From an uncultured virus (IMG/VR IMGVR_UViG_3300024264_000021) (Duplodnaviria; Heunggongvirae; Uroviricota; Caudoviricetes): a stretch of 64,000 nucleotides of DNA. The stretch lies in the IMG/VR virus record IMGVR_UViG_3300024264_000021, positions 1 through 64,000 of that record; one strand, given 5' to 3'. The notes beneath the pieces are model-generated. The model did not search any database and was not told the DNA's origin. It saw nothing but the letters and a program-made list of their open reading frames with translations. This document shows, piece after piece, positions 1,889 through 32,573 of this stretch (position 1 is the stretch's first letter; the number at the start of each line of letters is the position of its first letter). Made by a program: the position numbers and the translations under genes.

Positions 1889-3730
1889 ATGTCAAAAATT
1901 CCATCAGAAAATATCAGCGAATTAGATTTTTTAACAATTAGAAAAAATTTAATAGACTATGTTAAGAACAGTTCAGAATTTAAAGATTATGATTTTGAAG
2001 CATCTGGCTTGAACTTTGTTGTTGATTTATTATCATATAATACACAATATCAATCTTATTATTTAAATCAAGTAGCAAGTGAATTATTTTTAGATACAGC
2101 ACAAAAAAGAAAAAATGCTGCATCAATAGCAAAGCAAATAGGATATTTATCAAATGCAAAAACTGCATCTAAAGCTGAAATAAATTTTAGACTTACTGGA
2201 AATTTATCTGCTAATTATACAAAAAATATATTAGCAGGAACTAAGTTCTTAGGTAAAACAGCCAATGGAAATTTGTATCCATTTATTAGTGAAACTTCTA
2301 TTGTTTTAGCAAATAGTAATCAATTCACATCAAATATAACACTCACTCAAGGCACTTTAATATCAGAAGAAATAGTTGTAAATAATTTATTATTAGAAAA
2401 TAAATTTGAAATTTCTAGTAAAGATATAGATTTAACATACCTTACAGTACATGTTAGAGAAAATGAACTTGAACGATTGCGCACAAAATACAACAGAGTA
2501 TTTGATATTACATTACTTACAGAAGATTCCGAAATATTTTACATAGAACAAAATTATAATGGAAAATATCAAATAATTTTTGGAGATGGAATTTTAGGAA
2601 AAATTATTAAAAATAATAATGTAATTGAATTAAATTATTTGGTTACTTCAGGTGAAGATGCTAATGAGTGTGTAACTTTTGATATTGAAAATAAAAACGA
2701 CTTTGTTAACACGTTTTTAATAGAAACTATTCAATTTTCTTCACAAGGAGAAGATGAAGAAAATGCCGATGATATAAGAAATAATGCAAGAAAATTATAT
2801 TTCAGTCAAAATCGCACAGTCACTGAAAAAGATTATCAAATTATTTTGATGAAATATTTTCCTTTCATAGAATCAATTTCTGTTTGGGGTGGAGAAAAGA
2901 ATACTCCTCCGTTGTATGGTAGTGTATTTTGTGCGATTAAACCAAAAAATAGAGCATTGTTATCTAATTATGAAATAGATTACATAAAGTCAAGACTTGA
3001 CCAATTAAATGTAATTACCATACTACCAAGAATTGTTAATCCCGAATATACTTATATTAAAATTAATGCTAATGTAGTTTATGATTCCTTAGACATTAAT
3101 ATGAATCAAATAGAAATTGTAGATAATGTGAAGAATGTTATATTTGATTATTCTAAAAATAATTTATTAAAATTTTATAGTAATTTTCAATTAGCAAATA
3201 TTACTAAACTTGTAGATGATATAAGTCAATATTTCATGGGTTCATATTTAACTATAAATTTATACAAAAAAAGAAATATTGAAGTTGGGATTGGAGTTTA
3301 TTATAATATAAATTTTAATAACAAGATTAAAAAAGGTTCTTTAACTGCAAGTAGATTTGATTATATTGATAATAATAATAATTTAATATCAAATTGTTAT
3401 CTAAAAGAAAATTCAACATATACAGGCGTTGATATAGTTTTCACAATAAACGTATCCGGTTCAGACGTAGAATTTACACTAAAAGAAAATATAGGTAAAA
3501 TAGATTATGATTCTGGCATTTTTATATTAGAAGGATTTTCACCAACATATATAAGAGAAGATTCATCAGAAATGACATTTGAAATTCAATGTGATGAATT
3601 TATTATTATACCATCTAAAGAACAAATTCTAACAATTTCTATTGATGACATTTATATAACACCTTCTGCATTTATAGATAGGTCATCAACTTCTTCTAAT
3701 TTAGCAAAAGCGGAGTTATTTGATACATGA
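1889..3730 (+). CDS. gp6: T4-like baseplate wedge subunit gp6
   Basis: ELDF..IRKNL, FKDYDFEASGL, DLLSYNT, ELFLDTAQ, FGDGILGK, QNRTVT.KDY, SVWGGE and GKIDYDSG motifs. Confidence 0.95.
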   Translation: MSKIPSENISELDFLTIRKNLIDYVKNSSEFKDYDFEASGLNFVVDLLSYNTQYQSYYLNQVASELFLDTAQKRKNAASIAKQIGYLSNAKTASKAEINFRLTGNLSANYTKNILAGTKFLGKTANGNLYPFISETSIVLANSNQFTSNITLTQGTLISEEIVVNNLLLENKFEISSKDIDLTYLTVHVRENELERLRTKYNRVFDITLLTEDSEIFYIEQNYNGKYQIIFGDGILGKIIKNNNVIELNYLVTSGEDANECVTFDIENKNDFVNTFLIETIQFSSQGEDEENADDIRNNARKLYFSQNRTVTEKDYQIILMKYFPFIESISVWGGEKNTPPLYGSVFCAIKPKNRALLSNYEIDYIKSRLDQLNVITILPRIVNPEYTYIKINANVVYDSLDINMNQIEIVDNVKNVIFDYSKNNLLKFYSNFQLANITKLVDDISQYFMGSYLTINLYKKRNIEVGIGVYYNINFNNKIKKGSLTASRFDYIDNNNNLISNCYLKENSTYTGVDIVFTINVSGSDVEFTLKENIGKIDYDSGIFILEGFSPTYIREDSSEMTFEIQCDEFIIIPSKEQILTISIDDIYITPSAFIDRSSTSSNLAKAELFDT

Positions 3731-6700
3731 CAACTCCTAAAGAATTGGTTGAAAGTCATATTCCAAATTATTTTTTAGAGCAATATCCTCACTTTGTGAA
3801 GTTTATTGAGGAATATTATAATTTTTTAGAATCATCAGTAATACTTCTTACAGATAATAAAAAATTATCCGTGGGTGACATCATATATGGTTCTCTGTCT
3901 AAAGCAAAAGCCATTGTAAAAATAGTTACTAAAGATAGAGTATATTTTGATTATGAAACAGAAACGAATAATTTTTATAGAAATGAATTATTAGTAAATG
4001 GTATTAGCGGTGAAATATATTTTATTAAAAAATTATATAAGAATATACATCAATATGCTCAGGATATAGAGGAAAATACTAATTACGAAACCGCACTCAC
4101 AGTCTTTCAGAAATACTTTAAAAAGAATGTTTCTCTTGATCATAGTATTTTTCGTAGGTTAGACCCAAATATTCTTACCAAAAAAATATTAGATTATTAT
4201 AAAAACAAAGATACTGAAAATTCTTACTATTGGTTTTTTAGAATATTCTTTGATGATATTATAGAATTATATTATCCGAAAGTAGATATACTGAGACTTT
4301 CTGATAGTGGTTATTACGAACAAAATTTAATACAAATTGAATATAATTCTAGCATAAGTAAATTTAATCAAACTCGCATTTATGCACCTAAATCAAAAGC
4401 ATCTGCTATATGTCGTGACATCATAACTAAAAATCAAAATAACACCACAAAGGCCTTTCTTGATTTAGTTTACATTAATGGAACTTTTAAAGAAAATGAA
4501 ATTATAGTAGGATATGATATTACCACAGGATTAGAAGCAGTAAAAGGTGTAATAAAAAATTCAATTACTGGCTTAAAAATAACAGATGGTGGTATTGGTC
4601 ATAAAGTCGGTGATATGTTTAATTATGGTGATGGTAGAGCAGAAATTACAAAACTTAAAAAACATTCTATTACTAATATAAAAATAAATGACCCTGGTTT
4701 ATGCTATCGTGTGGGTGACCCGATTGTTTTTGACAATGCATTTACAAATGTAGAATATACAGCAAGTGCGTATGTTTCAGAAATTGAAGTAAATCCAACT
4801 CTTACTACTTATTTCAATTCTTTTTACAATATATTAAAAAATAGACCAGTATCTTTTTATGAGGATGAAACATTACTAGATGAAGTTTATGAAAATTCCA
4901 TATTGTTTAGAGATGCTACTCCATTAAAAGAATTACCCAGTGATGTTGTTACTGATTTTCAAATGGGTGGTATAAAAGAAATTACATTTGATGATTCCGG
5001 ATTAGGATATGAATTTGCTCCACCTGTTGTTGCAAAAAATCCTTTACCACAAGCAGAGTTATTGAACTATTTTGATGTTATATTTGATAATAACGAAGCA
5101 AATACTGCATATATTCAGAATGATACTTTAGTTTATATGAAAGGTGGCACAAGTACACCTGGAGATTTTAATGAAGCTATTTGTATTGGAGATGTAACTC
5201 TAGATGCTGATGAAGAACAAATATATTTGAGTGACTTGGATATACTCAGTGAAGACGTAGAAGTTAAAAGATTTATAACACTAAGGTCAGTAAAAGATTT
5301 AGAAACGGATACTTTTGTTGAAATTGAATTAGGACAAAATGAAAGATTTGATAACAATCAAATAAAATTAGATACAACTCTAAATGATTTCAGTGAGATA
5401 GGGTTGCCCTTTGGCACAACTTTAAATTTAGAAATAAAAGATTTAATAAAGATTAATCCTCTTGCAAATAGTGCTAAGTTGGAAAGTGTTTTAGGTGATG
5501 GTGTAGCTCAGATTAAAACACTTCAAATGGGTTTAATGACTAAATCAGATGATGTATTTGAATTTATTCACAATCCAGAAGAAAGAGTGTTTAATCAAGA
5601 TGATATCGCACACGGTTTGAAATCAGAATATGAATATGAAGAAGGGTTGTTCATTGATTCTTTTGATTCTTTCTTAGACAACAGAAGTAAATTATCATCA
5701 AACAAATATATTCATGATGGTTATTATTATCAAAATTATTCATATGAAATACGTACTAAAATACCAGCAAGTTTAATAGAACCTTTACTTTTAGATGAAT
5801 TACATCCTGCAGGATTTTTACATTTTATAAGAAATAAATTTGAACTTGAACTTGACTTTAGAATAAAAACACATGAATTGCATGAAATAGAAATAGACAG
5901 CCGTGGCTACATAATTGCTGAAATATTTGAGCATATAGAAGTAGAAAGATTAAATTTTGCAGATGCAACTATTGGTGATGTTATTAATCAAATAGAATTA
6001 GAAAATGAATTTATTCACAATGAGGAGATTGCAACATCTGAATATCCAGAAATAGAAGTAAATGCAATAGCACCGATTTTTGAAGGATTTCGTTTTTTCA
6101 TAGAAGATATTATATCAAAACCTAGTGAAAATTCATTTAGAGATTTTGATGATTATGGAAAAACAAATGAGAAAAATTCAATTATCACTGATACAAGACT
6201 ATATGATGGTATTGTAGCCGTACAATCTTTTGTGAAAATTATAAATGTTGAAGATGAAGCAAACTGGATTGCTGATGTAATTGGATATAGAAAAAATGCA
6301 ATTGGTTCTTTAGATGCAGATAGAACAATTTATAATTTTAGAGTAAGAGTAGAACGTGTATTTGAACATGTGCCAGATATTGCAAAGGGTGGATATATTG
6401 TAGTAAGAGATCCATTTACCGATTTATATGAACCAAGATTTAGTTCTGATTTACAACAATTTAGCAACGCAGAAATAGAATTTTCTGATACAGAAAGAAA
6501 TGAATATCTACCATTAGTTTCAGGAAATACATTATCCGGCAAAGGTTCTTATTTACCAAATGCAGAAATACTTACAAGAGATTATGGTTGGGTAACTTTT
6601 GAAAATCTAGAACCCTATATGCATGTTGCTAATGTGAAAGAAGATGGTGTTATAGTTTGGCAATTGCCAGATAGTATAGCAACAAGAGAATATAATGGAA

Positions 6701-9700
6701 TAATGCATCAGTATACAGATCATTCAAGTGTGTCTATAACAGTTTCTCCAGACCAAGAATTAGCTTTAGTTACATCAAATAAAATAATTAAAGGACGAAA
6801 ACTATCATCAAAAACAAAACCACCAACAGAACTAGACTTTTTAGCAGTACCTGATGAAACATTAGCCGGTACGGGTAAAAGAGCAATAATGGAATTGAGA
6901 GATATTGATAAAGAAATAGATAAGATTGAAGTTCCATACACAGGATTATTATACTGTCTGACATTGAAGAATAATCAAGATACAATTAAAGTTCCTTTTG
7001 AAGTAGATGAAGGTATATTAGAAGTAATTAGTTGGCAATCATTTATTGAAAATAATTATACTTTACCAAAAGTAACGAAGATAGAAAAAACATTCATTAA
7101 TGTAGATTATGAAAATGTAGCCATAGACCTTGAAAGTTATAGTATAATGCAACCAAGGTCAAATACAATAATATTTGACTATAATACAGTAGATTCAACC
7201 CCTTATCCGATAGTAAATCCTTCGGAAATTTTTTTTTTAACTTCAGCGGAAACACAGCCAACAACACAACCCTCACCCCAAGGGCCGTTGACAGTGGAAC
7301 CCCTACGGACGACTTTCCAGAATAGTGATGTAATTACAGATGAAGTAGATGTAGTATTAACATTAGCTTATCAGCAAGAATTCAAAACTGTATTAGATAC
7401 ATTTGAACATAAATTAACTGAACGACCGACAACATTTACTTCATTTTCTATTAATATAAAAGACTTTTTATTCTTTGAAAGTACAAGCACATTATCCAAT
7501 GACTCTTTTACTGATACTGCAATACGCTCAGTAACAGATGTTCCCCTCCATGTTGTTATTAATATTGATGAACAAATATTACCACTTTCTATTCAATCAT
7601 CTGATGAAGAAAATAATAGTGCGGTATTTTTAAATATTGAGTCTACTGCTGCAAAGTTTGATATTCAGCCGGCTATGGATAAACCCAAAAATAGAATATC
7701 AACACTGTCTTTTGAAAACAGAATACCTGCAATACGTGGAAAAATACCTAAGATTTTCCGAGAAGCGATTCTAATAAATTCAGATGATGATAAGAAAATA
7801 ACACAAATATCTATTGCAGATATTGAAACAGTTCTTTGTCCTGACCATCAATTTGAACCAAAAGCAAAAGTTGTAATTTTAAATTTCTTTGAGGAGTTTG
7901 AAAAGAATAGAGTAAGTTCTCTAATATTATTAGGAAGTATAAATGCGCATCCAGGAACAGAATCTGGATTACCAAGTGTTGAAGTAGAAGATGATAAAAT
8001 TTTAAATTATCACCACATAGATTCATTACAATTAAAAGAACCTGATTTAAGATATGTAATTACAAGATTAAATTTTGCAGATTCAAGTAGTGATACTGAC
8101 CCTGTTATATATTATACCTTTGTGAATTCTACAAACAAAAGCGCATATGGTATAAAACCATCTTCTTATTTTGATTCGGATGAATTAACTTTTGATAGTT
8201 ATGATAATTTTACATTTGATGAAGATAGTTTACTACCTGAAAGAAAATTATTTCAAGAAAGCGAAAATTTTAATGTTGATACTCTAGTTACTTTTGAAAA
8301 TATTGAAGACTTGGATAACTTAAAACCAATATACAACGAAGATAATTTTATAATTTGGTCAACCATAGTTGCTAATGATGTAAATTCTGGTGATATTGAT
8401 TTTATGAGTGTGCATGTGAATCACATTAATAATTTTGCATTTGAACCTTTCAGTTTAGACCCATCATTACCTAGCAAATCAATTCAACAAGACTTTACCG
8501 TAATACCCCCACCTGTTCATAAATTTGTTGGTATATCAGAATCTGGATTTGATCCATTGTCCACTCTAGTAAGTGGAGGTGATAACCCTGCAGTAACTGA
8601 TGTAACACCTTTAGAAACAGATGTAAATCGTAAAATATTTGTTGATGTTTTAAATAGAAATTTATTTTTTAATTTTGATGAAAAAATTGTTGATTACAAA
8701 AACAATTTTATAGTTTATAATCTCCATAAAAAATATAAACCATATTTGGGTGACACAATGCCCGCCACAAGCGCATTGTCAGAACCCTTTTTGTATACAA
8801 GTCCTAAATCAAAGGATTTATCTACAGTATTAGACAAAGAAACTATTTATTTTGCCAACACTGTTATTTTAGATTCTTCTACGGAAGTCATTAGTAAAAC
8901 AGATATAGAAAATCATTTTGAGATAGAAGATAGAAGAAAATACATAACATTAGATACTCAATTTGAGAATTGGAAAAGGCAATTTATTGCTGGATATCTT
9001 CCTGTTAAATTTTCAGATTATGTTTTAGATAAAATACCAAGTGCATTTATTCAAGATGCGATTATTATAAGTAAACGGACAGCAAATGAGGATGTAAGTC
9101 CTCTCGTACATCCAAACAGCATATTCTCAGATGCAGCGCCTCCAGCTATTTATTTTGAATTAGAACTTGCAGAAGCACAAACCGAAATAAAAATTCCTAT
9201 TATAATTGAAGATAGAAATAAGTATGTAGATTTAGGAGATATCATTTTACCATGGACTCCTATTTTAATTAAGGATTATTCTAGAATAAAAATGGATGAT
9301 TATATTCTGGATAAATTACCTTCAGTAAGAATAGATGGTACTTACATAAGAAATGAGAGACAATCAAATACAGAATTACTCACTAATTTTGAATTGTTTT
9401 CATCTCTTTATGGAAACACAACATTTTTAGATTCTAGTTTTGATATCATGGGTGAAATAGAAGAAGACATTGAAAACAATATTATTGATAGAAATAAACT
9501 TATAATTAGAAGTGATTATATCTACCCATATGAATTTACAATCATAGAACATTTTATGAGACCATGGGTTATACGTGAATATAGTCAAGATACATTACCA
9601 TCTGTAACTGCATATCTTGAAGTAGTGCCGATTACAGATTATGTTGAAAATATGGAAGTCATTAATATTGATAATAGAATATTAACAGGAAATACAACAT

Positions 9701-11712
9701 TCTTAGATGCTACACAAGATATTGATTTTGAATTTGAAATTAAAAACGAAAATTTAATACTTGATAGACATAAAACATTTTCATTAAGTGATATTATAGG
9801 ACCCTGGACAGATAATACTCTCTTTGGTTTCTATAGACCTTTACAATTAAAGTATTATAATTTAAGTGATATTCCTACTGTAAGAGTTCATTCTGAGCCT
9901 GAAATTACATATAATCCAATTGTTCTTGCAAATACAGAAATAGTTTCGTTCACAACATTATATGGAAACACGGCATTTGCGGACGCAACTCATGATGTAA
10001 CATTTGAATATGGATTTGAAGATGATACTATAATAGTTGATAGAAACAAAACTTTTGCAGAAGATAGAGTCATTAGTAGATGGGTGGATACAAAATTTTC
10101 TTTAGATATGATACCTAAGATTTTTGTGGATTTTGAAAGTGAGACTGTACCAACGGCTACTGTACTGAATGAACCAGAAATAACATACAATCCAAAAGTA
10201 CCTATTGATGTGAATATAGTTCCGTTTACAACATTATACGGTAACACAGCATTTGCAGATGCAACTACAGATATTTACTCTGTAATTGATGAATACGAAC
10301 ATAATCCCAAATTACTTGACAGAAATGTCACATTAAGTTATGAAGATAGAATTACTTCATACTTTAATAATTTTGTTGATGACTATTTACCGTTTAAACT
10401 CGTTCCTTATAATTTAGATTATATTCCAACAGTTTCTGTTCTAAATGAATTAGAATTCACATATAATCCTACTTTAGATTTAATACATACTGCAATTACA
10501 TCAAGTACTACTGTATATGATAAGCAAGCAACTATTTTAGATAATACAATAGCAACAGAAGAAGTTGTTCTTGAATTTGAAAATCTTGTAGAATTTATTT
10601 CTGATAAATCTAAAATTGGAAGAAAAGATTTTATTATTAATAAACAAAATGAAATTATTGGTAATTATTTAAATAGTCAAATAGCCGAACACACATATGA
10701 TACTGTGAAGACTGTAGATGTAGGTTTGACAAACAATGATGAAATAGAATATGTCATTATATCTGATATGGAAGAATTAACTAGTGATGAAATATCTATA
10801 TTGTATAATGATAAGCATACTTTCATAGATTCTACATCTTTTATGGACTCTACAGAAATTGAATTTTTTAGTGAATCTTATGTCTATAATGAAAATAGTG
10901 CAATATCGCTAAATGATAGAATAACAGAATCCTTTTTAGAAAAGCAAATAAGACCAAAAGTTCTTACTAAATTAAGATATGATATTATTAATACAATACC
11001 TATTGTATCTCCAAAAACTCAATATTCTATCACAACTGTTGATATACAAGATGGAAAATCTAAATTTAAAGAAACTGTATCAAATATTATTGGTACTGAA
11101 AAGATCCTTGATGGTACTATAGAATTAATTCAAAATGAAAATCTAACAAAAATATTTAATGAAATTGAAGATAGAAATTTTTTATTTCAATTAGATAAAA
11201 AAGTTGATACTTTTTTAAAAGAAGAAATAACAGAAAAAGTTCCTTTAAAATTAAAATATTATATTTTAGAATCTAATATACCTACAGTTCAAGCAGAATT
11301 ATTTGCAAAAGAAATTTTTGATTATTCATTTTCAACAACTCCAGATGATATATCTTTAGTAGATTTTGAGAAAATTTTAAGTTTTGATTCAGAAGGAAAT
11401 ATAAATAACACCTTTGGATTTAAAGAGAGTCAAATAAACACTATAAATAATGGAATAACGAATGATAATTTTTTATTAAATACTGTGATTGGACCTTTTA
11501 CTGATGACTATATAAGATTTGAAATTGAAAAACATTTAAAAAGAAAAGGTGATGATAAACAGACGTATTTACATGCCACATTAAAAATGAATTATACTGT
11601 GAGTGAGGTTTATACTTGGAATATTAGTGCGCTAAATACATTTGAAACAGAATATAATGATCCGAACATAAATAGAAAAGAGTTTTTAGAGACTGTACGA
11701 ATTGAAGTTTAA
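3727..11712 (+). CDS. gp7: Very large T4 gp7-like baseplate wedge initiator with Hint-like insertion and C-terminal repeats
   Basis: N-terminal P.YF.E.YP.FVKFIEEYYNFLE, YYK.K.TE.SY..FFRIFF, YYPK.DILRLSD and YIHDGYYYQNYSYEIR...LHPAG motifs; lies between gp6 and gp8. Confidence 0.85.
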   Translation: MTTPKELVESHIPNYFLEQYPHFVKFIEEYYNFLESSVILLTDNKKLSVGDIIYGSLSKAKAIVKIVTKDRVYFDYETETNNFYRNELLVNGISGEIYFIKKLYKNIHQYAQDIEENTNYETALTVFQKYFKKNVSLDHSIFRRLDPNILTKKILDYYKNKDTENSYYWFFRIFFDDIIELYYPKVDILRLSDSGYYEQNLIQIEYNSSISKFNQTRIYAPKSKASAICRDIITKNQNNTTKAFLDLVYINGTFKENEIIVGYDITTGLEAVKGVIKNSITGLKITDGGIGHKVGDMFNYGDGRAEITKLKKHSITNIKINDPGLCYRVGDPIVFDNAFTNVEYTASAYVSEIEVNPTLTTYFNSFYNILKNRPVSFYEDETLLDEVYENSILFRDATPLKELPSDVVTDFQMGGIKEITFDDSGLGYEFAPPVVAKNPLPQAELLNYFDVIFDNNEANTAYIQNDTLVYMKGGTSTPGDFNEAICIGDVTLDADEEQIYLSDLDILSEDVEVKRFITLRSVKDLETDTFVEIELGQNERFDNNQIKLDTTLNDFSEIGLPFGTTLNLEIKDLIKINPLANSAKLESVLGDGVAQIKTLQMGLMTKSDDVFEFIHNPEERVFNQDDIAHGLKSEYEYEEGLFIDSFDSFLDNRSKLSSNKYIHDGYYYQNYSYEIRTKIPASLIEPLLLDELHPAGFLHFIRNKFELELDFRIKTHELHEIEIDSRGYIIAEIFEHIEVERLNFADATIGDVINQIELENEFIHNEEIATSEYPEIEVNAIAPIFEGFRFFIEDIISKPSENSFRDFDDYGKTNEKNSIITDTRLYDGIVAVQSFVKIINVEDEANWIADVIGYRKNAIGSLDADRTIYNFRVRVERVFEHVPDIAKGGYIVVRDPFTDLYEPRFSSDLQQFSNAEIEFSDTERNEYLPLVSGNTLSGKGSYLPNAEILTRDYGWVTFENLEPYMHVANVKEDGVIVWQLPDSIATREYNGIMHQYTDHSSVSITVSPDQELALVTSNKIIKGRKLSSKTKPPTELDFLAVPDETLAGTGKRAIMELRDIDKEIDKIEVPYTGLLYCLTLKNNQDTIKVPFEVDEGILEVISWQSFIENNYTLPKVTKIEKTFINVDYENVAIDLESYSIMQPRSNTIIFDYNTVDSTPYPIVNPSEIFFLTSAETQPTTQPSPQGPLTVEPLRTTFQNSDVITDEVDVVLTLAYQQEFKTVLDTFEHKLTERPTTFTSFSINIKDFLFFESTSTLSNDSFTDTAIRSVTDVPLHVVINIDEQILPLSIQSSDEENNSAVFLNIESTAAKFDIQPAMDKPKNRISTLSFENRIPAIRGKIPKIFREAILINSDDDKKITQISIADIETVLCPDHQFEPKAKVVILNFFEEFEKNRVSSLILLGSINAHPGTESGLPSVEVEDDKILNYHHIDSLQLKEPDLRYVITRLNFADSSSDTDPVIYYTFVNSTNKSAYGIKPSSYFDSDELTFDSYDNFTFDEDSLLPERKLFQESENFNVDTLVTFENIEDLDNLKPIYNEDNFIIWSTIVANDVNSGDIDFMSVHVNHINNFAFEPFSLDPSLPSKSIQQDFTVIPPPVHKFVGISESGFDPLSTLVSGGDNPAVTDVTPLETDVNRKIFVDVLNRNLFFNFDEKIVDYKNNFIVYNLHKKYKPYLGDTMPATSALSEPFLYTSPKSKDLSTVLDKETIYFANTVILDSSTEVISKTDIENHFEIEDRRKYITLDTQFENWKRQFIAGYLPVKFSDYVLDKIPSAFIQDAIIISKRTANEDVSPLVHPNSIFSDAAPPAIYFELELAEAQTEIKIPIIIEDRNKYVDLGDIILPWTPILIKDYSRIKMDDYILDKLPSVRIDGTYIRNERQSNTELLTNFELFSSLYGNTTFLDSSFDIMGEIEEDIENNIIDRNKLIIRSDYIYPYEFTIIEHFMRPWVIREYSQDTLPSVTAYLEVVPITDYVENMEVINIDNRILTGNTTFLDATQDIDFEFEIKNENLILDRHKTFSLSDIIGPWTDNTLFGFYRPLQLKYYNLSDIPTVRVHSEPEITYNPIVLANTEIVSFTTLYGNTAFADATHDVTFEYGFEDDTIIVDRNKTFAEDRVISRWVDTKFSLDMIPKIFVDFESETVPTATVLNEPEITYNPKVPIDVNIVPFTTLYGNTAFADATTDIYSVIDEYEHNPKLLDRNVTLSYEDRITSYFNNFVDDYLPFKLVPYNLDYIPTVSVLNELEFTYNPTLDLIHTAITSSTTVYDKQATILDNTIATEEVVLEFENLVEFISDKSKIGRKDFIINKQNEIIGNYLNSQIAEHTYDTVKTVDVGLTNNDEIEYVIISDMEELTSDEISILYNDKHTFIDSTSFMDSTEIEFFSESYVYNENSAISLNDRITESFLEKQIRPKVLTKLRYDIINTIPIVSPKTQYSITTVDIQDGKSKFKETVSNIIGTEKILDGTIELIQNENLTKIFNEIEDRNFLFQLDKKVDTFLKEEITEKVPLKLKYYILESNIPTVQAELFAKEIFDYSFSTTPDDISLVDFEKILSFDSEGNINNTFGFKESQINTINNGITNDNFLLNTVIGPFTDDYIRFEIEKHLKRKGDDKQTYLHATLKMNYTVSEVYTWNISALNTFETEYNDPNINRKEFLETVRIEV
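6547..7038 (+). other. Intein-like Hint domain (about 164 aa, aa 941-1104) inside gp7
   Basis: SYLPNAEILTRDYGWVTFENL (block A-like), YNGIMHQY..SITVSPDQEL (block B-like), EVPYTGLLYCLTL (block F-like), ends ..VISWQ|S. Confidence 0.7.
7229..7328 (+). other. Candidate -1 frameshift / slippage cassette in gp7
   Basis: T10 run at 7229-7238 containing in-frame U-UUU-UUA; GC-rich 7240-7320; -1 frame open for 28 codons, then TAG TGA at 7323-7328. Confidence 0.55.
8830..11400 (+). repeat. About nine degenerate ~92-aa tandem protein repeats in the gp7 C-terminal half
   Basis: GNT(T/A)F.D motifs start at 9412, 9688, 9964 and 10240 (exact 276-nt period); DR(N/H)K motifs at 9211, 9487, 9763, 10039; boundaries approximate. 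Confidence 0.85.
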
Positions 11713-21066: not shown

Positions 21067-22959
21067 ATGAAATCATTTACAACTATTTTAACAGAAGCTA
21101 GAAGAAATCCAGAATTGAATGTAAAACAATTTCCTGTTGAGGCATTGTTAAAATATGAGAAGGACCTAGATATTTTTATTTCATTCATATCTAATGCAAA
21201 AGAATTTACAGAAACAGGTAAAAGCGGTGAACTATCAGCACAAGTAGGATTGAACACCAAATCAAAATTCAACACTCCGAATGGTGTATACACATATCCT
21301 CTAGAAGAAGTTTATTTAATGTATAGTGGTGGTAAAGAATATAAAAGATTTAATGTTCCTTTTGTAAAAGAAAAACCTAAAATAGCTATTCTTAAAAGAA
21401 AGGGTAATAAAAATATTAATGATGTTGGTAGAGATTATAAGCAAGCTATGCTAGAAAAGGATGTGAGAAAAATAATTGAGTATGCCTCTAAAAAATTGAT
21501 GGATGTATTGAATATTAAAAATGAAAAGCTAATGTATTATATGATGTTGTCTGTTATTGAGCATTCAATGAAAGGTGCAAAGGCTGAAAATCGTGGTGCT
21601 GAATTTTGGAACATAACTAGAACAGTTTCTGGATTAATTGCACAAGCAAGGAAAGTAAAACAACTTACAGCAACTTCAAAAGAATATGACAAGGATAACA
21701 CATACAATATGGTTTATACTTTAAAGGATGCTGAAGGTCCAACTAGCTTTAATGCAGAAGTAGACTTAACAGAAAAAGATAAAATAAAAGATTTTTTACC
21801 AGATAAAGTTGAATCAGTTCCAGCAGAAATGAAAACTGACCCGTATAAATTTATTAAAAAAGAATCTAGAGATTTTAAATTTGATTTGGTAATAATGAAA
21901 GACCCATCACCAAATGAAAAGAAAGGTGCAAAACCAGCGGCTAACGCATGGGCTAATTTGTTGATTAATATTGGATATGATTCTATTAGTGATAGAAGTG
22001 GTTATGGAATTATTCATGAGGCAGAGCCTGTACAAGCAGTATTTTTATCCAGAGCAGGTTATAAAGTATTGGATATCATTGATAATAAAACATATGAGGA
22101 TAAAACACCACATGCAATTGAATATAAGAAACTAGATTCTAAAGAAAAAAAGATTAACTATATTTTAAAAGATATTATTAGGAACAAATACGATCCAATG
22201 AAAGAAACTAGGCCTTTGTATGCAAAAGGAAATGTAGCAATGCATACAAGAATGACTACTTTCTATAAAGCATGTAAGGATTACAATGTTAAATTAGACA
22301 AAGATGTTCTAGAAGTAGTAATCAAGAAGGAACCAGATGCTGCCGTTGGAATGCATCATTATACTGATGATGCTAAATTTCTAAACTATTTTTATAAGTG
22401 GGCATTCATAAAAGAGCCGATGCATGTGCGTGTATTAATGGAACTTGAAAACTCTAAACTAGATGTTGATTCATTTATATTTGCATTAAAGGAAGCTAAA
22501 GAAAAGAATACAAGTGTCCGTGACTTAGGTAGATGGGTAAATAGATGGTATGAACTTAAAAAAGAAGTTCCATTGAAACTACAATTAGCTGCAGTTGATA
22601 TTTGGCCTGGTATGGCAAAATATTTTGGAGATTCTAAAGAATTGGAAGTATTTGAAAAGATATTGAAGAGTGATGAGCCGAGTGGAATCAAAGGATTCTT
22701 TATGCATAATTCTACTAAATCAATAACCGATTTTAGTAAAGAACCTAAATTTGAAACAAAAGTTATAGATATAATAGTGAATGATTATTTCAAAGATTTA
22801 GGTCCTGGATTCTTTAAAGACTTGGAAAAAGAAACAGAAGAAGTACGAAAGAATAAACTAGATGAACAATTAAACTACATAGCATTTACTGTTTTCAGAA
22901 GAAAACTTACCCCGAAAGGTGCAATACATTTAAATAACCGTGTATACAATTTTACATGA
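21067..22959 (+). CDS. Hypothetical protein; candidate internal head protein, possibly ADP-ribosyltransferase-like
   Basis: 630 aa; starts MKSFTTILTE; NTPNGVYTYP and GYDSISD..G.G.IHEAEPVQAVF motifs. Confidence 0.6.
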   Translation: MKSFTTILTEARRNPELNVKQFPVEALLKYEKDLDIFISFISNAKEFTETGKSGELSAQVGLNTKSKFNTPNGVYTYPLEEVYLMYSGGKEYKRFNVPFVKEKPKIAILKRKGNKNINDVGRDYKQAMLEKDVRKIIEYASKKLMDVLNIKNEKLMYYMMLSVIEHSMKGAKAENRGAEFWNITRTVSGLIAQARKVKQLTATSKEYDKDNTYNMVYTLKDAEGPTSFNAEVDLTEKDKIKDFLPDKVESVPAEMKTDPYKFIKKESRDFKFDLVIMKDPSPNEKKGAKPAANAWANLLINIGYDSISDRSGYGIIHEAEPVQAVFLSRAGYKVLDIIDNKTYEDKTPHAIEYKKLDSKEKKINYILKDIIRNKYDPMKETRPLYAKGNVAMHTRMTTFYKACKDYNVKLDKDVLEVVIKKEPDAAVGMHHYTDDAKFLNYFYKWAFIKEPMHVRVLMELENSKLDVDSFIFALKEAKEKNTSVRDLGRWVNRWYELKKEVPLKLQLAAVDIWPGMAKYFGDSKELEVFEKILKSDEPSGIKGFFMHNSTKSITDFSKEPKFETKVIDIIVNDYFKDLGPGFFKDLEKETEEVRKNKLDEQLNYIAFTVFRRKLTPKGAIHLNNRVYNFT

Positions 22960-23696
22960 AAAACTTTAAACAATTCTTTTTAAATTTGCAAGAGGCACTC
23001 ACTAAAATTTTAGTTGTCTTTGATATTGACGATACGTTGGTTCACACATCAACAAAAGTTAGAGTAATGAAAGATGGGAAAAAAATAAGGGAACTGAACA
23101 GTCATGAGTTCACCAACTATAAACTCAAGGACGGTGAAGAATTTGATTTTGAGAACTTTCGCAATGCAAAAGAATTTTTTGATAATGCAAAACCGATCAT
23201 TCCTATGATGAAACAATTGAAGAGAGATATCAATCGTGGGAATAAAGTTGTAATGGTTACTGCCAGAGCGGACTTTGATGATAAAGAATTATTTTTAGAT
23301 ACCTTTCGTAAGTACGGAATTGATATGAAAAAAGTTCATGTATACCGTGCCGGTAACATGAAGGGTGGAACTATTGAGGAAAACAAGAAAAAAATCATTC
23401 TTTCTCTGATGAACAAGGATACTTACGATAAGGTCATTATGTACGATGATTCAAAAGCAAATCTAAATTCTTTTGTTTCTTTGAAAAAAGATTATCCTAA
23501 TGCTAAGTTTTATGGTTGGTATGTAAACCCTACTGGCGAAGCATCTGAAGCTCTGAGAGAACAATTTTATGACATTGCTGAAAAATGGACTAAGAAATAC
23601 AAAAAGTCCATTGACTGTAATAACCCCAAGGGGTTTAGCCAACGTGCACATTGCCAAGGAAAGAAAAAATTAAAATCAGCAAGAAAAATTAGGTGA
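22956..23696 (+). CDS. HAD-superfamily phosphatase with capsid-targeting-like N-terminus and basic Cys/His C-terminal module
   Basis: VFDIDDTL (DxD), VMVTAR, conserved K, MYDDS..NL; tail KWTKKYKKSIDCNNPKGFSQRAHCQG. Confidence 0.85.
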   Translation: MKNFKQFFLNLQEALTKILVVFDIDDTLVHTSTKVRVMKDGKKIRELNSHEFTNYKLKDGEEFDFENFRNAKEFFDNAKPIIPMMKQLKRDINRGNKVVMVTARADFDDKELFLDTFRKYGIDMKKVHVYRAGNMKGGTIEENKKKIILSLMNKDTYDKVIMYDDSKANLNSFVSLKKDYPNAKFYGWYVNPTGEASEALREQFYDIAEKWTKKYKKSIDCNNPKGFSQRAHCQGKKKLKSARKIR

Positions 23697-29250: not shown

Positions 29251-29556
29251 TTAGTTTAGAAGATTAGGTAGAAGGTTCTTGACTTTCTCATGCCTTTCAA
29301 GCACATCTTCATAAGTCAACCAACCAGCAACATAATCACCTTCATCTGTGATGCCTTCTACTTCTCTACCTACTCTTTTGTAGAATACGGCAATCTCATA
29401 CAGACCTGCTTTTCCGCCATATGACATGTTATGTCGGATAGTAGAAATAGAATATCCGTTATCAAAGTCTTTCCAGCATCTAATCGCTGAACCGTCTTCT
29501 AATTCAAAACCACTGATAACTTCTAGTTGTCGACCGAATGGATGTTCTTCAGACAT
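29251..29556 (-). CDS. Conserved phage hypothetical protein
   Basis: FDNGY.IS....SYGG..GLYEIAV...GWLT.EDV motif; AGGAG RBS. Confidence 0.8.
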   Translation of the reverse strand: MSEEHPFGRQLEVISGFELEDGSAIRCWKDFDNGYSISTIRHNMSYGGKAGLYEIAVFYKRVGREVEGITDEGDYVAGWLTYEDVLERHEKVKNLLPNLLN

Positions 29557-29576: not shown

Positions 29577-29653
29577 TGGCGACCTGTACCGGACTTGAAC
29601 CGGTGACCTCTTGCGTGACAGGCAAGCGTTCTAACCAACTGAACTAACAGGCC
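29577..29653 (-). tRNA. tRNA-Asp(GTC)
   Basis: GGCCTGTTAGTTCAGTTGGTTAGAACGCTTGCCTGTCACGCAAGAGGTCACCGGTTCAAGTCCGGTACAGGTCGCCA; cloverleaf with encoded CCA. Confidence 0.96.
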
Positions 29654-29701: not shown

Positions 29702-30904
29702 TTAATGTCTTGTCATAAATGCTGCTATATTTTTTATATTTTGTTCACGTTGAAGCTCATCAGTATCTACTATACTTTCAATATAATCAGCAAATTCAAA
29801 AAGCGGAGGTTCATCAAAAGTTAATAAACCTTTGTAACCAAGAGTTGATTTTACAATATATTTGTTATTGAAAAATGATATGTATTGAAGCATTTCTCTT
29901 AATTTATGAAGAGCATCTACAGGATTATCTATAAATCGTTCATTAAAATCTGAGTGTAATGATATTAATCGAGAATCTTTCAATTTATATCTATGCTGTA
30001 CTGTTTTACAATTTGGACATACATTTGCAATATATATACGTGAAGATTCTTTTGAAACTGGTCTATACTCTAATGTTTTAGGTATTTTTTTAGTTTGTTC
30101 AACTATATCTTCAGAGTCTTTTTGAGTTAATTGTTTAGAAAATTCCCTATCAATAAATCTATCTATATTAATAACACCACTTGAAAATAAACAATCATAT
30201 TCCCAAGCAAAAACGGGAATTATCTCATTACAGTCATTTTTCCAGCATTGAGTAAGTCCTACTTTAAAATACCCACCAGTTCCATCTATATCAACATAAC
30301 TTAAATCAATATCATATTTATTTAAAGTTTTTAAAATTAAACGTTTTGTCTTAATATAATTAAGATTATTGTCTATAGTTTTAATTATTGATAAATCTGC
30401 ATCTTGTTGTATTATATCTTCCGTTTTAATTTCAAAATACATTATATTATTGTCATTATAAAATGCTCTTTTATGGTCTTCCATAGCATGAGTATGCAGA
30501 ATTTCTATAGCTAATAAAGTATTGTCGCTCAAAGTAACAACCAAATCTGCTACAACTGAAGTAAATGAACCTTCCTCTTTTACATTTATAAATTCTCCCG
30601 GTTTAAATACAATATTTTTATATTCACCGTTTGTAAAAGATAATGATTCTTTATTGTCTATATTACCTTTAATTAATGAAATTAAAATTTCTTTGGCGTA
30701 TGCATGATACATAGATTCGGACAAAGAATCGACAGTAACTTTAGTTCTAAAATGCGGTCGTTTTACTTTTCCTTTATTTAAAATAAATTCTATAGATTTA
30801 TTTTTATCAAAATAAAATTTTCCTTCCTTTTTAGCATTATTAACATGAACTAAATGTAAATTTTCATTGTACGCAAAGGGAAATTTAACTTCTGCTAGAT
30901 TCAT
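29702..30904 (-). CDS. CoiA-like PD-(D/E)xK nuclease domain protein
   Basis: KGKVKRPHFR, ES..H..AK, ADLVV...LAIEILHTH; later CW..C and CPNC Cys pairs. Confidence 0.65.
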   Translation of the reverse strand: MNLAEVKFPFAYNENLHLVHVNNAKKEGKFYFDKNKSIEFILNKGKVKRPHFRTKVTVDSLSESMYHAYAKEILISLIKGNIDNKESLSFTNGEYKNIVFKPGEFINVKEEGSFTSVVADLVVTLSDNTLLAIEILHTHAMEDHKRAFYNDNNIMYFEIKTEDIIQQDADLSIIKTIDNNLNYIKTKRLILKTLNKYDIDLSYVDIDGTGGYFKVGLTQCWKNDCNEIIPVFAWEYDCLFSSGVINIDRFIDREFSKQLTQKDSEDIVEQTKKIPKTLEYRPVSKESSRIYIANVCPNCKTVQHRYKLKDSRLISLHSDFNERFIDNPVDALHKLREMLQYISFFNNKYIVKSTLGYKGLLTFDEPPLFEFADYIESIVDTDELQREQNIKNIAAFMTRH

Positions 30905-30931: not shown

Positions 30932-31008
<77 letters not shown>

Positions 31009-31171: not shown

Positions 31172-31552
31172 TTATAAAAAATATTCTTTAATATGCTGGG
31201 CTAAAGTCATTGCAACTGTACCTAATAGAAAAACATTTAAAACAACTAAACTTCTGTCATTCCATTGTGCTGCAACAATAGCCCATAAAAATAAACCAAT
31301 CAAACTAAAAATATAGTTCATTGGAAGTAATGCTAAATTAGTAAGTAATGTACCAACAATGAGAAACGCATTACCAATCCATTTTGCCCAATAGGTCCAA
31401 TCATCAACAGGAGTTACAATTTTTGTGATTTGCGGTTCATTCTCAACAATTTCATCTACTACGGAACTATCATATGAAATTGCAGTTACTTCTTTTTTTT
31501 CAAGAAAAGGTTCATTGAACTTTAAATCTTCATTATTTGTATTATTTTCCAT
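31172..31552 (-). CDS. Small multi-pass membrane protein
   Basis: Acidic N-terminus, then three hydrophobic segments (KWIGNAFLIVG.., W..VA..WNDRSLVVLN). Confidence 0.8.
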   Translation of the reverse strand: MENNTNNEDLKFNEPFLEKKEVTAISYDSSVVDEIVENEPQITKIVTPVDDWTYWAKWIGNAFLIVGTLLTNLALLPMNYIFSLIGLFLWAIVAAQWNDRSLVVLNVFLLGTVAMTLAQHIKEYFL

Positions 31553-31584
31553 TAATTACATAATAAATATATTTTTTTTAAATG

Positions 31585-31671
31585 TGGTACGGGGTGGAAG
31601 AATTGAACTTCATTGGCACCGCCACTCTGTTTTGCCGCATGTATATAAGACATGTGAATGGAACACCCCGC
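31585..31671 (-). ncRNA. Atypical tRNA-like RNA lacking a D-arm (UAU anticodon loop, long variable arm, CCA end)
   Basis: GCGGGGT/ACCCCGT acceptor + A + CCA; GAAG-TTCAATT-CTTC T-arm; CATGT-CTTATAT-ACATG arm; lies in the tRNA cluster. Confidence 0.75.
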
Positions 31672-31679
31672 ATATCTCT

Positions 31680-31865
31680 TTAGCTTACCATATCAGCAAA
31701 TTCATCAAACCTTTTTCCGAATTTATCTTTATAATAATTCAACATATTTTGTTCTTTTCTTGCAATAACTTCAGCAGATTCCTTTTTTTCAGTTGCTTTC
31801 TTTTTCATCACTTCAATTTGCGAAAGCATTTTACGTACAACTTTCTTTTGTTTAGCATTAGCCAT
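31680..31865 (-). CDS. Small basic hypothetical protein (start moved to MANAKQ)
   Basis: GGAG RBS before the ATG at 31865; the longer ORF call overlaps tRNA-Asn. Confidence 0.65.
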   Translation of the reverse strand: MANAKQKKVVRKMLSQIEVMKKKATEKKESAEVIARKEQNMLNYYKDKFGKRFDEFADMVS

Positions 31866-31882
31866 AATTACTCCATAAGGTT

Positions 31883-31958
31883 TGGCTCCTGATGCTGGAC
31901 TCGAACCAGCGACCCAATGATTAACAGTCATTTGCTCTACCAACTGAGCTAATCAGGA
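31883..31958 (-). tRNA. tRNA-Asn(GTT)
   Basis: TCCTGATTAGCTCAGTTGGTAGAGCAAATGACTGTTAATCATTGGGTCGCTGGTTCGAGTCCAGCATCAGGAGCCA. Confidence 0.96.
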
Positions 31959-31963
31959 GTATT

Positions 31964-32500
31964 TTAAAATAAAGATTTTAAATCAAACTCTTTAGTATTA
32001 TCATATACTAAAGAAATACATTGTTGTGAACCTCGCATGTATGATTTGAGTTTACCACTATAAAAATCTACTCTATCTTGATTTTTTAATAATTGCTTTT
32101 TATTAAAAGTAGTTGCATAATAATTTTTAGATTTACTAATAATCCAATCATCTTTTTGTAAACTTAATCCAGCTATAAAAAATGATGGGACATTATTTTC
32201 ATTCAATTTCCATGAAACAAAAATGAAATATCCACCTCGCTTAGAGTATTCTCCACCTCTCCAAGAATCACCAGATGTTGTTTTAATCTCAACAGGCTCA
32301 CCATTCAAACGAATATCTGGCTCACTATCAACTTTTGGAGCAATCGCACCTTCAATCATTTCTTCCATCACTGTCTCAAGCAAACCAGAAATATCTTCAG
32401 ATTTCTGCTTATCAGATTTTCTTAACTTCTTTTTGTCGTAAAAATCAAATAATTCCTTTACCTCATCTGTCAGTCTATCTATGATTTGCTTTGTAATCAT
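31964..32500 (-). CDS. Restriction-endonuclease-like PD-(D/E)xK protein
   Basis: EPDIRLNGEPVEIKTT catalytic-type motif. Confidence 0.7.
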   Translation of the reverse strand: MITKQIIDRLTDEVKELFDFYDKKKLRKSDKQKSEDISGLLETVMEEMIEGAIAPKVDSEPDIRLNGEPVEIKTTSGDSWRGGEYSKRGGYFIFVSWKLNENNVPSFFIAGLSLQKDDWIISKSKNYYATTFNKKQLLKNQDRVDFYSGKLKSYMRGSQQCISLVYDNTKEFDLKSLF

Positions 32501-32545: not shown

Positions 32546-32573
32546 ATCATATCAAAACTATCTGAAAAGTCAA
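32546..32573 (-). promoter_or_regulatory. Sigma70-type promoter
   Basis: TTGACT-16-TATGAT with TGn, upstream of the nuclease and tRNA cluster. Confidence 0.65.

Follow-up and report, generated by a model that had tools for sequence, protein, structure and literature searches.

The 64,000-nt window analyzed in this study, taken from the 74-kb record (G+C content of approximately 30%) of an uncultured virus (IMGVR_UViG_3300024264_000021), harbors an 87-nt tRNA-like gene on its minus strand (31585..31671). This element is a genuine gene of tRNA descent that is under selection and whose core has been rewired: its RNA is a three-way junction without a D-arm, in which both functional ends and the arm lengths of a tRNA have been kept. 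It represents a new case of a tRNA or tRNA-like architecture that has so far been described only for mitochondrial tRNAs. To our knowledge, the cloverleaf with its D-arm/T-loop core is regarded as universal outside mitochondria, and that core is generally taken to be required by RNase P, the CCA-adding enzyme, aminoacyl-tRNA synthetases, EF-Tu, and the ribosome alike. Full-text literature searches and motif look-ups in the supplements of two papers yielded no description of the 87-nt RNA; the supplement of PMC10690425 lies partly outside this look-up, and the RNA may be among its unnamed candidates.

Fold and covariation

The 87-nt string quoted in an original prediction, which had described a D-armless tRNA-like RNA from the sequence alone, was identical to the window sequence at 31585-31671 on the minus strand. 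We use alignment columns 1-87, where column i corresponds to window position 31671-(i-1); all parts of the RNA described below lie on the minus strand. Of the checks proposed in that prediction, ARAGORN made no call, whereas homologs and covariation were found. ARAGORN with six option sets (including -t, -t -ps, -mt, -mtmam, and -mt -ps) called none of the 12 variants, and Rfam (RF00005) gave no match to the element at the gathering score or at E <= 10 in a 701-base slice; by neither program does the RNA reach the threshold of a four-arm cloverleaf. Standard annotation thus misses the RNA, and phage tRNA repertoires and codon-adaptation analyses are incomplete to that extent. Folding of the window copy alone gave a minimum free energy (MFE) of -23.9 kcal/mol (z = -1.53 versus shuffles); because this single-sequence fold is no better than those of shuffles, the reality of the RNA has to be judged from its relatives.

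Twelve distinct 87-nt variants, aligned without gaps, defined the fold. From 5' to 3', it comprises an 8-bp acceptor stem, a UU linker, a helix named S2 that is closed around A17, an anticodon-like hairpin and a 10-nt loop, a 10-nt junction, a 4-bp T arm, the discriminator A73, and CCA. Across the 12 variants, 99.7% of the 312 pair cells are paired and 11 of the 26 pairs are changed on both sides. None of 500 shuffled controls reached the observed covariation values, and only 45-59% of the cells were paired when the partners were slid by 1-3 columns. RNAalifold, run without a supplied structure, returned the same nested fold.

The outer branch is that of a tRNA. The 5' strand of the acceptor stem (columns 1-8, GCGGGGUG, including G1.U72; 31664..31671) pairs with its 3' strand (columns 76-83, CACCCCGU; 31589..31596) in 100% of cells, and three of these pairs are doubly changed. 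The acceptor stem and T stem had been drawn with 7 and 5 bp; pair 8:76 is G-C in all 12 variants and the fifth T-stem pair (60:76) can form in only one, and the actual split is 8/4. The T arm (columns 61-75; 31597..31611) has a covarying 4-bp stem, GAAG/CUUC, which is paired in 100% of cells with two doubly changed pairs, and the loop UUCAAUU, which is UUCAAYU across the variants, with G-UUCAA kept in all of them. The discriminator A73 and the genome-encoded CCA (31585..31588) are likewise invariant. The RNA therefore has the acceptor end, the 12-bp acceptor/T branch, and the T-loop UUCRANY of a canonical tRNA. This branch length is the one used by RNase P, the CCA-adding enzyme, and EF-Tu, according to the portions of PMC5389517 considered here.

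The anticodon-like hairpin (columns 18-34; 31638..31654) also has canonical dimensions, with a 5-bp stem (CAUGU/ACAUG) and a 7-nt loop (CUUAUAU) containing U33 and a purine at position 37. Its stem is paired in 100% of cells and covaries, with double changes at 18:34 and 19:33. Columns 23-28 (CUUAUA, corresponding to C32 U33 U34 A35 U36 A37) are invariant in 12/12 variants, the full loop being CUUAUAN, and the anticodon UAU (columns 25-27; 31645..31647) lies between U33 and A37. These parts of the original prediction, namely the acceptor helix, the T-loop, A73 with encoded CCA, and the 5-bp/7-nt hairpin with C32-U33-UAU-A37, were present and kept in every variant. In most variants, single-sequence folding favors a different register of this hairpin (18-24:32-38). 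That register showed no double change and is broken at three of its six pairs in the two window-type variants; the comparative data accordingly favor the anticodon-like hairpin.

No D-arm hairpin is present between the acceptor and anticodon stems, as had been proposed. However, the stand-in is not a run of 10 unpaired nucleotides. Only nine nucleotides (UU, CCAUUC, and A) separate the two stems, and the six of CCAUUC (columns 11-16; 31656..31661), which occupy the D-stem position after the UU linker, pair with GAGUGG (columns 45-50; 31622..31627) within what had been taken for a variable arm. This 6-bp helix S2, identified by covariation and RNAalifold, is paired in 71 of 72 cells and three of its six pairs are changed on both sides (13:48, UA/GC/AU; 14:47, UG/GC; 15:46, CG/UA); other lineages carry CCGGCC/GGCCGG and CCUUCC/GGGAGG at the same columns. 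S2 encloses the anticodon hairpin and stacks on it in place of a D-stem, and the two stems would together give an 11-bp arm plus A17, approximately the length of the normal D/anticodon-stem stack.

Two single-stranded regions complete the core, a 10-nt 3'-side internal loop with an invariant AAACA (columns 35-44, CGGCAAAACA; 31628..31637) and a 10-nt junction between S2 and the T stem with an invariant CGGUGC (columns 51-60, CGGUGCCAAU; 31612..31621). Between them, columns 36-38 and 55-57 can pair in all 12 variants (36:57 is AU in 10 and GC in two, 38:55 is CG in eight and UG in four, and 37:56 is GC throughout). These are three of the four GGCA/UGCC pairs that had been assigned to a 25-nt extra arm; the fourth, 39:54, occurs in only two variants, and no free hairpin exists. 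The 7/5 drawing with a free extra arm is thus ruled out by both 60:76 and 39:54. Because pairing of 36-38 with 55-57 crosses S2, it can exist only as a pseudoknot, and a 3-bp pseudoknot is possible on these sequences. We also suspect that G52 and G53 of CGGUGC act as T-loop partners and rebuild the elbow.

Relatives and distribution

An exact 22-mer search returned three identical copies. At the syntenic place in locus L008, reached through a neighboring DUF6552 gene, we found a diverged copy of the same odd RNA, which revealed the pairing of columns 11-16, rather than the normal tRNA that the original prediction had considered for this site in relatives. Two motif patterns applied to IMG/VR identified 11 carrier contigs, and two of the 13 matches of one pattern (L030 and L035) were discarded as chance matches. 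A pattern that left the anticodon free gave 33 matches in the metagenome collection, of which 32 are family members, all with UAU, and one (L051) is a chance match. The 12 variants come from these 11 IMG/VR and 32 metagenome contigs. The flanks are wholly different between lineages while the 87-nt RNA is retained, and compensatory changes hold all helices across the different phage backgrounds, which agrees with the earlier argument that the intact stems reflect selection.

A covariance model built from the 12 variants (R1) scored the window gene at 102.9 bits and located a single copy per record in the five carrier records (103-115 bits). The metagenome pattern, applied to one genome per species for 185,579 prokaryote species, gave two matches, neither of which is a member (14.1 bits with R1 for one, the other not reported). 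Searches of 50,697 phage records by blastn with two variants gave only short chance matches (E of at least 0.2), and R1 found no member in T4, HTVC008M, Melnitz, or S-CRM01, in which only weak matches of at most 22 bits were obtained. The T4-type baseplate gene gp6 was present in three of the carrier records (G000, G001, and G003). Neither gp6 nor a clear gp44 was found in G002 (117.6 kb) or G004, where the sole gp44-family match, in G004, was marginal (E = 4e-4), and one carrier metagenome contig is 245.6 kb long. The RNA may therefore be shared by several groups of large phages, although the records are fragments and the absence of marker genes from them is weak evidence.

Comparison with known systems and possible origin

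Human mitochondrial tRNA-Ser(GCU), as presented in the portions of Kuhle et al. (2022, PMC9427863) considered here, resembles the phage RNA in having no D-arm. In both RNAs, the segment standing in for the D-arm is base-paired to the variable region and stacked on the anticodon stem as its continuation, so that the molecule takes a three-helix Y/L shape. The same portions describe the mitochondrial tRNA as having a 4-nt linker, loose pairs with a vestigial variable loop, no tertiary core, and a remodeled T-arm, and as requiring co-evolved mitochondrial partners. In the phage RNA, by contrast, the pairing is a 6-bp Watson-Crick helix that covaries; the T-loop is canonical, two extra loops are invariant, the CCA is encoded, and the RNA belongs to a bacterial system. 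It was not called in the mitochondrial modes of ARAGORN, and its carrier is a T4-like phage rather than an organelle.

A second comparison is with the 8/4 tRNAs, whose 8-bp acceptor stem and 4-bp T stem the phage RNA shares. In the parts of Mukai et al. (2017, PMC5389517) used here, 8/4 tRNA-His and tRNA-Ser are reported from alphaproteobacterial phage tRNA clusters, 8/4 tRNAs function in E. coli translation, and UAU is the commonest anticodon of allo-tRNAs. The estuarine 8/4 tRNA-His rows of that source have G1.U72, a GAGG/CCTC T stem, A73, and CCA in common with the phage RNA. The 8/4 allo-tRNAs, however, are described there as keeping the cloverleaf, with a long-stem D-arm closed by a tetraloop (CGGU where the anticodon is UAU) and with a long variable arm that is free, whereas the phage RNA has no D-arm and its 'variable' region is spent in a long-range helix. 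The phage RNA motifs TGTCTTATA and CCGTACCA were absent from the sequence table of PMC5389517.

The original prediction had also pointed to two stable T4 RNAs without a known role that are encoded among the tRNA genes, and the T4 annotation indeed places rnaC and rnaD (species 1 and 2) in the tRNA cluster. Like the phage RNA, they are small, non-canonical RNAs of unknown function at the edge of a T4-type tRNA cluster; unlike it, they measure 139 and 119 nt and lack an anticodon-like loop at tRNA distance. On the whole T4 record, R1 matched only 72113-72195 (21.4 bits), a tRNA-Ser, and showed no similarity to rnaC or rnaD.

A gapped pattern and a follow-up pattern identified further phage genes with a UAU loop. 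At four of six loci, ARAGORN called tRNA-Ile(UAU) genes of 91-93 nt (L117:401-491(-), L119:353-445(+), L120:353-445(+), and L121:401-493(-)). In these genes the D-arm is normal and the variable arm long, and a 7/5 branch is combined with U72, A73, and CCA. UAU, U72, A73, CCA, and a colinear CAGC…GCGG after the anticodon arm are common to these genes and the 87-nt RNA. They are nevertheless distinct from the 87-nt family with its 103-115 bits, as L119 and L120 scored only 15.2 bits with R1 and the tRNA-Ile genes of L117 and L121 were unlisted. When these genes and L115 are aligned with the family, colinear letters are shared around the anticodon arm as well as after it, and the 5' strand of S2 falls at the place expected for a D-arm that has lost its loop. 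A plausible ancestor of the 87-nt family is a long-arm tRNA-Ile(UAU) whose D-arm was lost, with what was left of it pairing anew to the variable region.

The variable arm of the four called genes carries a 7-nt loop, CAGAUAA, that resembles an Ile GAU anticodon loop with A33; its short stem covaries (CGC/GCG versus ACC/GGU), and a class-II-like tRNA-Ile is unusual. At L115:301-402(-), a 102-nt gene missed by ARAGORN scored 40.5 bits with the Rfam tRNA model and was parsed with a 32-nt 'D-loop insertion' containing a CUUAUAA hairpin. We discarded this parse, a tRNA with a UAU hairpin inserted in its D-loop, as a long-variable-arm tRNA-Ile(UAU) is the simpler description in light of L117 and L119-L121. 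L118 (approximately 401-445), also without an ARAGORN call, shows a D-loop insertion of approximately 40 nt and a CAGAUAA anticodon loop with A33.

Codon usage and proposed function

AUA codons are common in the window, as had been noted (613 of 19,657 codons, or 31 per 1000). In all five carrier records, AUA accounts for 24-34 per 1000 codons and 32-44% of Ile codons, and exceeds AUG in each. The RNA lies in a tRNA cluster or within approximately 3 kb of one in four of the five records. The tRNAs of the records largely read A-ending codons (Arg UCU, Leu UAA, Thr UGU, Pro UGG, and Ala UGC), a pattern of the clusters into which UAU fits; Asn, Asp, CAU, and one Gly(ACC) tRNA were also found. No canonical tRNA-Ile with GAU or UAU was detected in the five carrier records. 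The ARAGORN call of tRNA-Gly(ACC) is at G001:C1:101098-101173 (L094:1501-1576), and A34 is unusual for a bacterial-type tRNA-Gly.

The most likely function of the RNA is that of an unconventional AUA-decoding tRNA of the phage, to which we give an even chance. The heavy use of AUA, the set of tRNAs for A-ending codons, the exact 12-bp branch, the canonical anticodon loop, A73, and CCA all lend support to it, as do the conserved and covarying fold, the location in or near tRNA clusters, the lack of a canonical tRNA-Ile with GAU or UAU, the promoter in G002, and the precedents of working 8/4 tRNAs and of ordinary-looking phage tRNA-Ile(UAU) genes. In the proposed pathway, host RNA polymerase would transcribe the RNA, starting at a dedicated consensus promoter in some phages but as part of a tRNA-cluster polycistron in the window phage. 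RNase P would release it at G1, and the 3' end would be trimmed to the encoded CCA. The invariant loops would fold the junction, with the GG of CGGUGC contacting the T-loop as G18 and G19 do in a normal tRNA, and N6-threonylcarbamoyladenosine (t6A) would be placed on A37 beside U36. A synthetase would then charge the RNA, the likeliest amino acid being isoleucine on account of UAU, A37, and A73, and EF-Tu would carry it. Finally, AUA, among the commonest codons of the AT-rich carrier phages, would be read without lysidine synthesis by the host TilS.

Several observations weigh against this interpretation. Single-sequence folding gave the exact consensus in none of the 12 variants, and it gave S2 in nine but not in the window copy, where the consensus has -21.7 kcal/mol and the MFE structure -23.9 kcal/mol. 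The anticodon stem contains two G.U pairs in 10 of the 12 variants. The D-arm and pairs 4:69 and 29:41 contribute to recognition by E. coli isoleucyl-tRNA synthetase; the phage RNA has G-C at 4:69 and U-A at 29:41, and it has lost the D-arm together with the tertiary core. If unrestricted, U34 could decode AUG as well. Moreover, three of the five records (G001, G002, and G004) have a CAU tRNA that is tRNA-Ile2-like. These tRNAs (G001:C1:105129-105202, G002:C1:8942-9015, and G004:C1:8564-8637) were called Met by ARAGORN, but the best E. coli matches listed for them, eight in number (79-80% identity), are all annotated as tRNA-Ile, and T4 tRNA-Ile is also similar. Given this resemblance, they are likely lysidine-dependent AUA readers alongside the UAU RNA, and a second AUA reader would be partly redundant; in G002, the CAU tRNA is only 245 nt from the 87-nt RNA. 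Among the soil allo-tRNA(UAU) species given a CUA anticodon, six of six were inactive in E. coli, in the portions of PMC5389517 considered here. Lastly, no metatranscriptome contig spans the whole RNA, and the contigs cannot give its ends, strand, or level and might derive from DNA carry-over.

A fuller version of the decoding proposal would be a translation-competent three-way-junction tRNA working on bacterial ribosomes: the first non-organellar D-armless tRNA, maybe derived from a long-variable-arm tRNA-Ile(UAU), that would supply lysidine-independent AUA decoding and maybe be invisible to host factors that recognize the normal tRNA core. We hold this tentatively, at somewhat less than an even chance. 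If the RNA does decode, bacterial translation tolerates another tRNA topology, and tRNA engineers gain a new scaffold. If it does not, the RNA is a precise mimic of one tRNA and would point to a host-phage conflict around the AUA reader.

Such a mimic, made and processed like a tRNA without decoding, is the main rival but in our judgment rather unlikely. As a decoy or sponge, it could occupy a host factor with affinity for the AUA-reading tRNA or for the anticodon loop of that tRNA (a tRNA-targeting defense nuclease, a modification enzyme, or a synthetase); alternatively, it could resemble uncharged tRNA and tune a host stress response. The CAU tRNAs favor this explanation, as AUA decoding may already be supplied in the three records that have them, and so does a core too aberrant for ARAGORN or Rfam. 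The window also encodes a polynucleotide-kinase-like protein (phrog_415), and the soil allo-tRNA(UAU) genes, inactive in translation, lie close to toxin-antitoxin genes in the portions of PMC5389517 considered here. On the other hand, a decoy of the anticodon loop needs no exact 12-bp branch, invariant A73, or tRNA-like arm length, no partner protein is conserved beside the RNA, and no defense nuclease specific for a UAU anticodon was identified in this analysis. An improbable further explanation is a stable tRNA-shaped RNA that serves as RNase P punctuation of a polycistron or has another function like T4 rnaC/rnaD. It would suit the position of the window copy, which lies between two open reading frames (ORFs), 8 nt from the upstream one and 33 nt from the downstream one, without a terminator, and also the RNA contigs found across each of the two borders; T4 too has two stable RNAs, role unknown, at the end of its tRNA cluster, and rnaC has a T-arm-like end by eye. 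However, punctuation requires only an acceptor/T minihelix and does not account for the invariance of the CUUAUA loop, AAACA, and CGGUGC or for the covariation of S2 and the anticodon stem, while G002 has a perfect promoter of the RNA's own and R1 did not match rnaC or rnaD.

The original prediction had also allowed for a decaying tRNA, and this we reject; together with a chance tRNA-like string, it retains only a minute probability. The silence of the tRNA finders and the z of only -1.53 for the window copy would be expected of such a sequence. Nevertheless, helices are kept by compensatory changes throughout 12 variants without indels, with 11 doubly changed pairs and 99.7% of cells paired, and the RNA has been kept while its flanks differ completely and has a 12/12 consensus promoter in one lineage. 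The differences among the variants also exclude that they are assembly copies of one sequence.

Genomic context and expression

PHROG matches identified the window phage as a T4-type myovirus, with genes for baseplate wedge proteins, the gp44/62 clamp loader, the gp45 sliding clamp, RegA, and gp46/47, as well as gp55, UvsW, UvsY, PhoH, a cobalt-chelatase-like ATPase, and peptide deformylase. The clamp loaders of S-CRM01, Melnitz (a phage of OM43), and HTVC008M (a phage of SAR11) share no more than 44-45% identity with that of the window phage, which is therefore a distant, uncultured marine relative.

The tRNA cluster of the window, all on the minus strand, includes a canonical tRNA-Asn(GUU) upstream of the RNA (31883..31958; ARAGORN, and Rfam with 71.5 bits) and, downstream, canonical tRNA-Arg(UCU) (30932..31008) and tRNA-Asp(GUC) (29577..29653), both identified by ARAGORN and Rfam. 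A 61-aa ORF of no known family (31680..31865, minus) has its stop codon 8 nt before G1, which places the RNA inside a polycistron in the window phage. Starting 33 nt after the CCA is a DUF6552 membrane-protein gene (31172..31552, minus; Pfam PF20189, 5.2e-11), which is the downstream neighbor of the RNA in L008 too; DUF6552 homologs elsewhere (L009-L014) had no upstream copy of the 87-nt RNA. No conserved protein partner was found beside the RNA, its neighbors varying by lineage and the flanking ORFs of G002 having no informative family.

Beside the RNA in the window, neither a terminator-like site nor a better-than-chance promoter was found. Upstream of the cluster, the promoter-like sequence with the best score, TTGACT-16-TATGAT with TG (32546..32573, minus), agrees with the consensus at 10 of 12 positions and is a candidate for the start of the RNA-carrying transcript, judged from this consensus match. 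In G002, a sigma-70 promoter matching the consensus at 12/12 positions (TTGACA-16-TGnTATAAT) ends 17 nt before G1, and similar promoter boxes are visible upstream of other variants.

Parts of the stretch were present in three RNA libraries among the metatranscriptomes. Contigs X1 (31422-31609) and X2 (31640-31790) each span one border of the RNA at a depth of 2-4. Another contig (X4), a single 166-nt assembly of low depth from a run of unrecorded type, starts exactly at 31585, the final base of the encoded CCA, and runs upstream past G1 to 31748; we draw no conclusion from it.

Two ORFs without Pfam or PHROG matches, 29702-30904(-) (400 aa) and 31964-32500(-) (178 aa), alternate with the tRNA genes, much as the homing endonuclease segB does in T4. 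PHROG family 4074 (unknown function) is represented by a small protein encoded beside the tRNA cluster both in the window (29251-29556(-)) and in G002 (L073:2484-2810(-)), a record that looks unrelated. Elsewhere in the window, a 2661-aa ORF (3727-11712(+)) has baseplate-wedge-like matches only near its N-terminus and is an unusually large structural protein. The polynucleotide-kinase-like gene lies at 22956-23696(+) (phrog_415, 1.6e-11). T4 polynucleotide kinase has a role in the repair of cleaved tRNA, and this gene may bear on a tRNA-centered conflict with the host.

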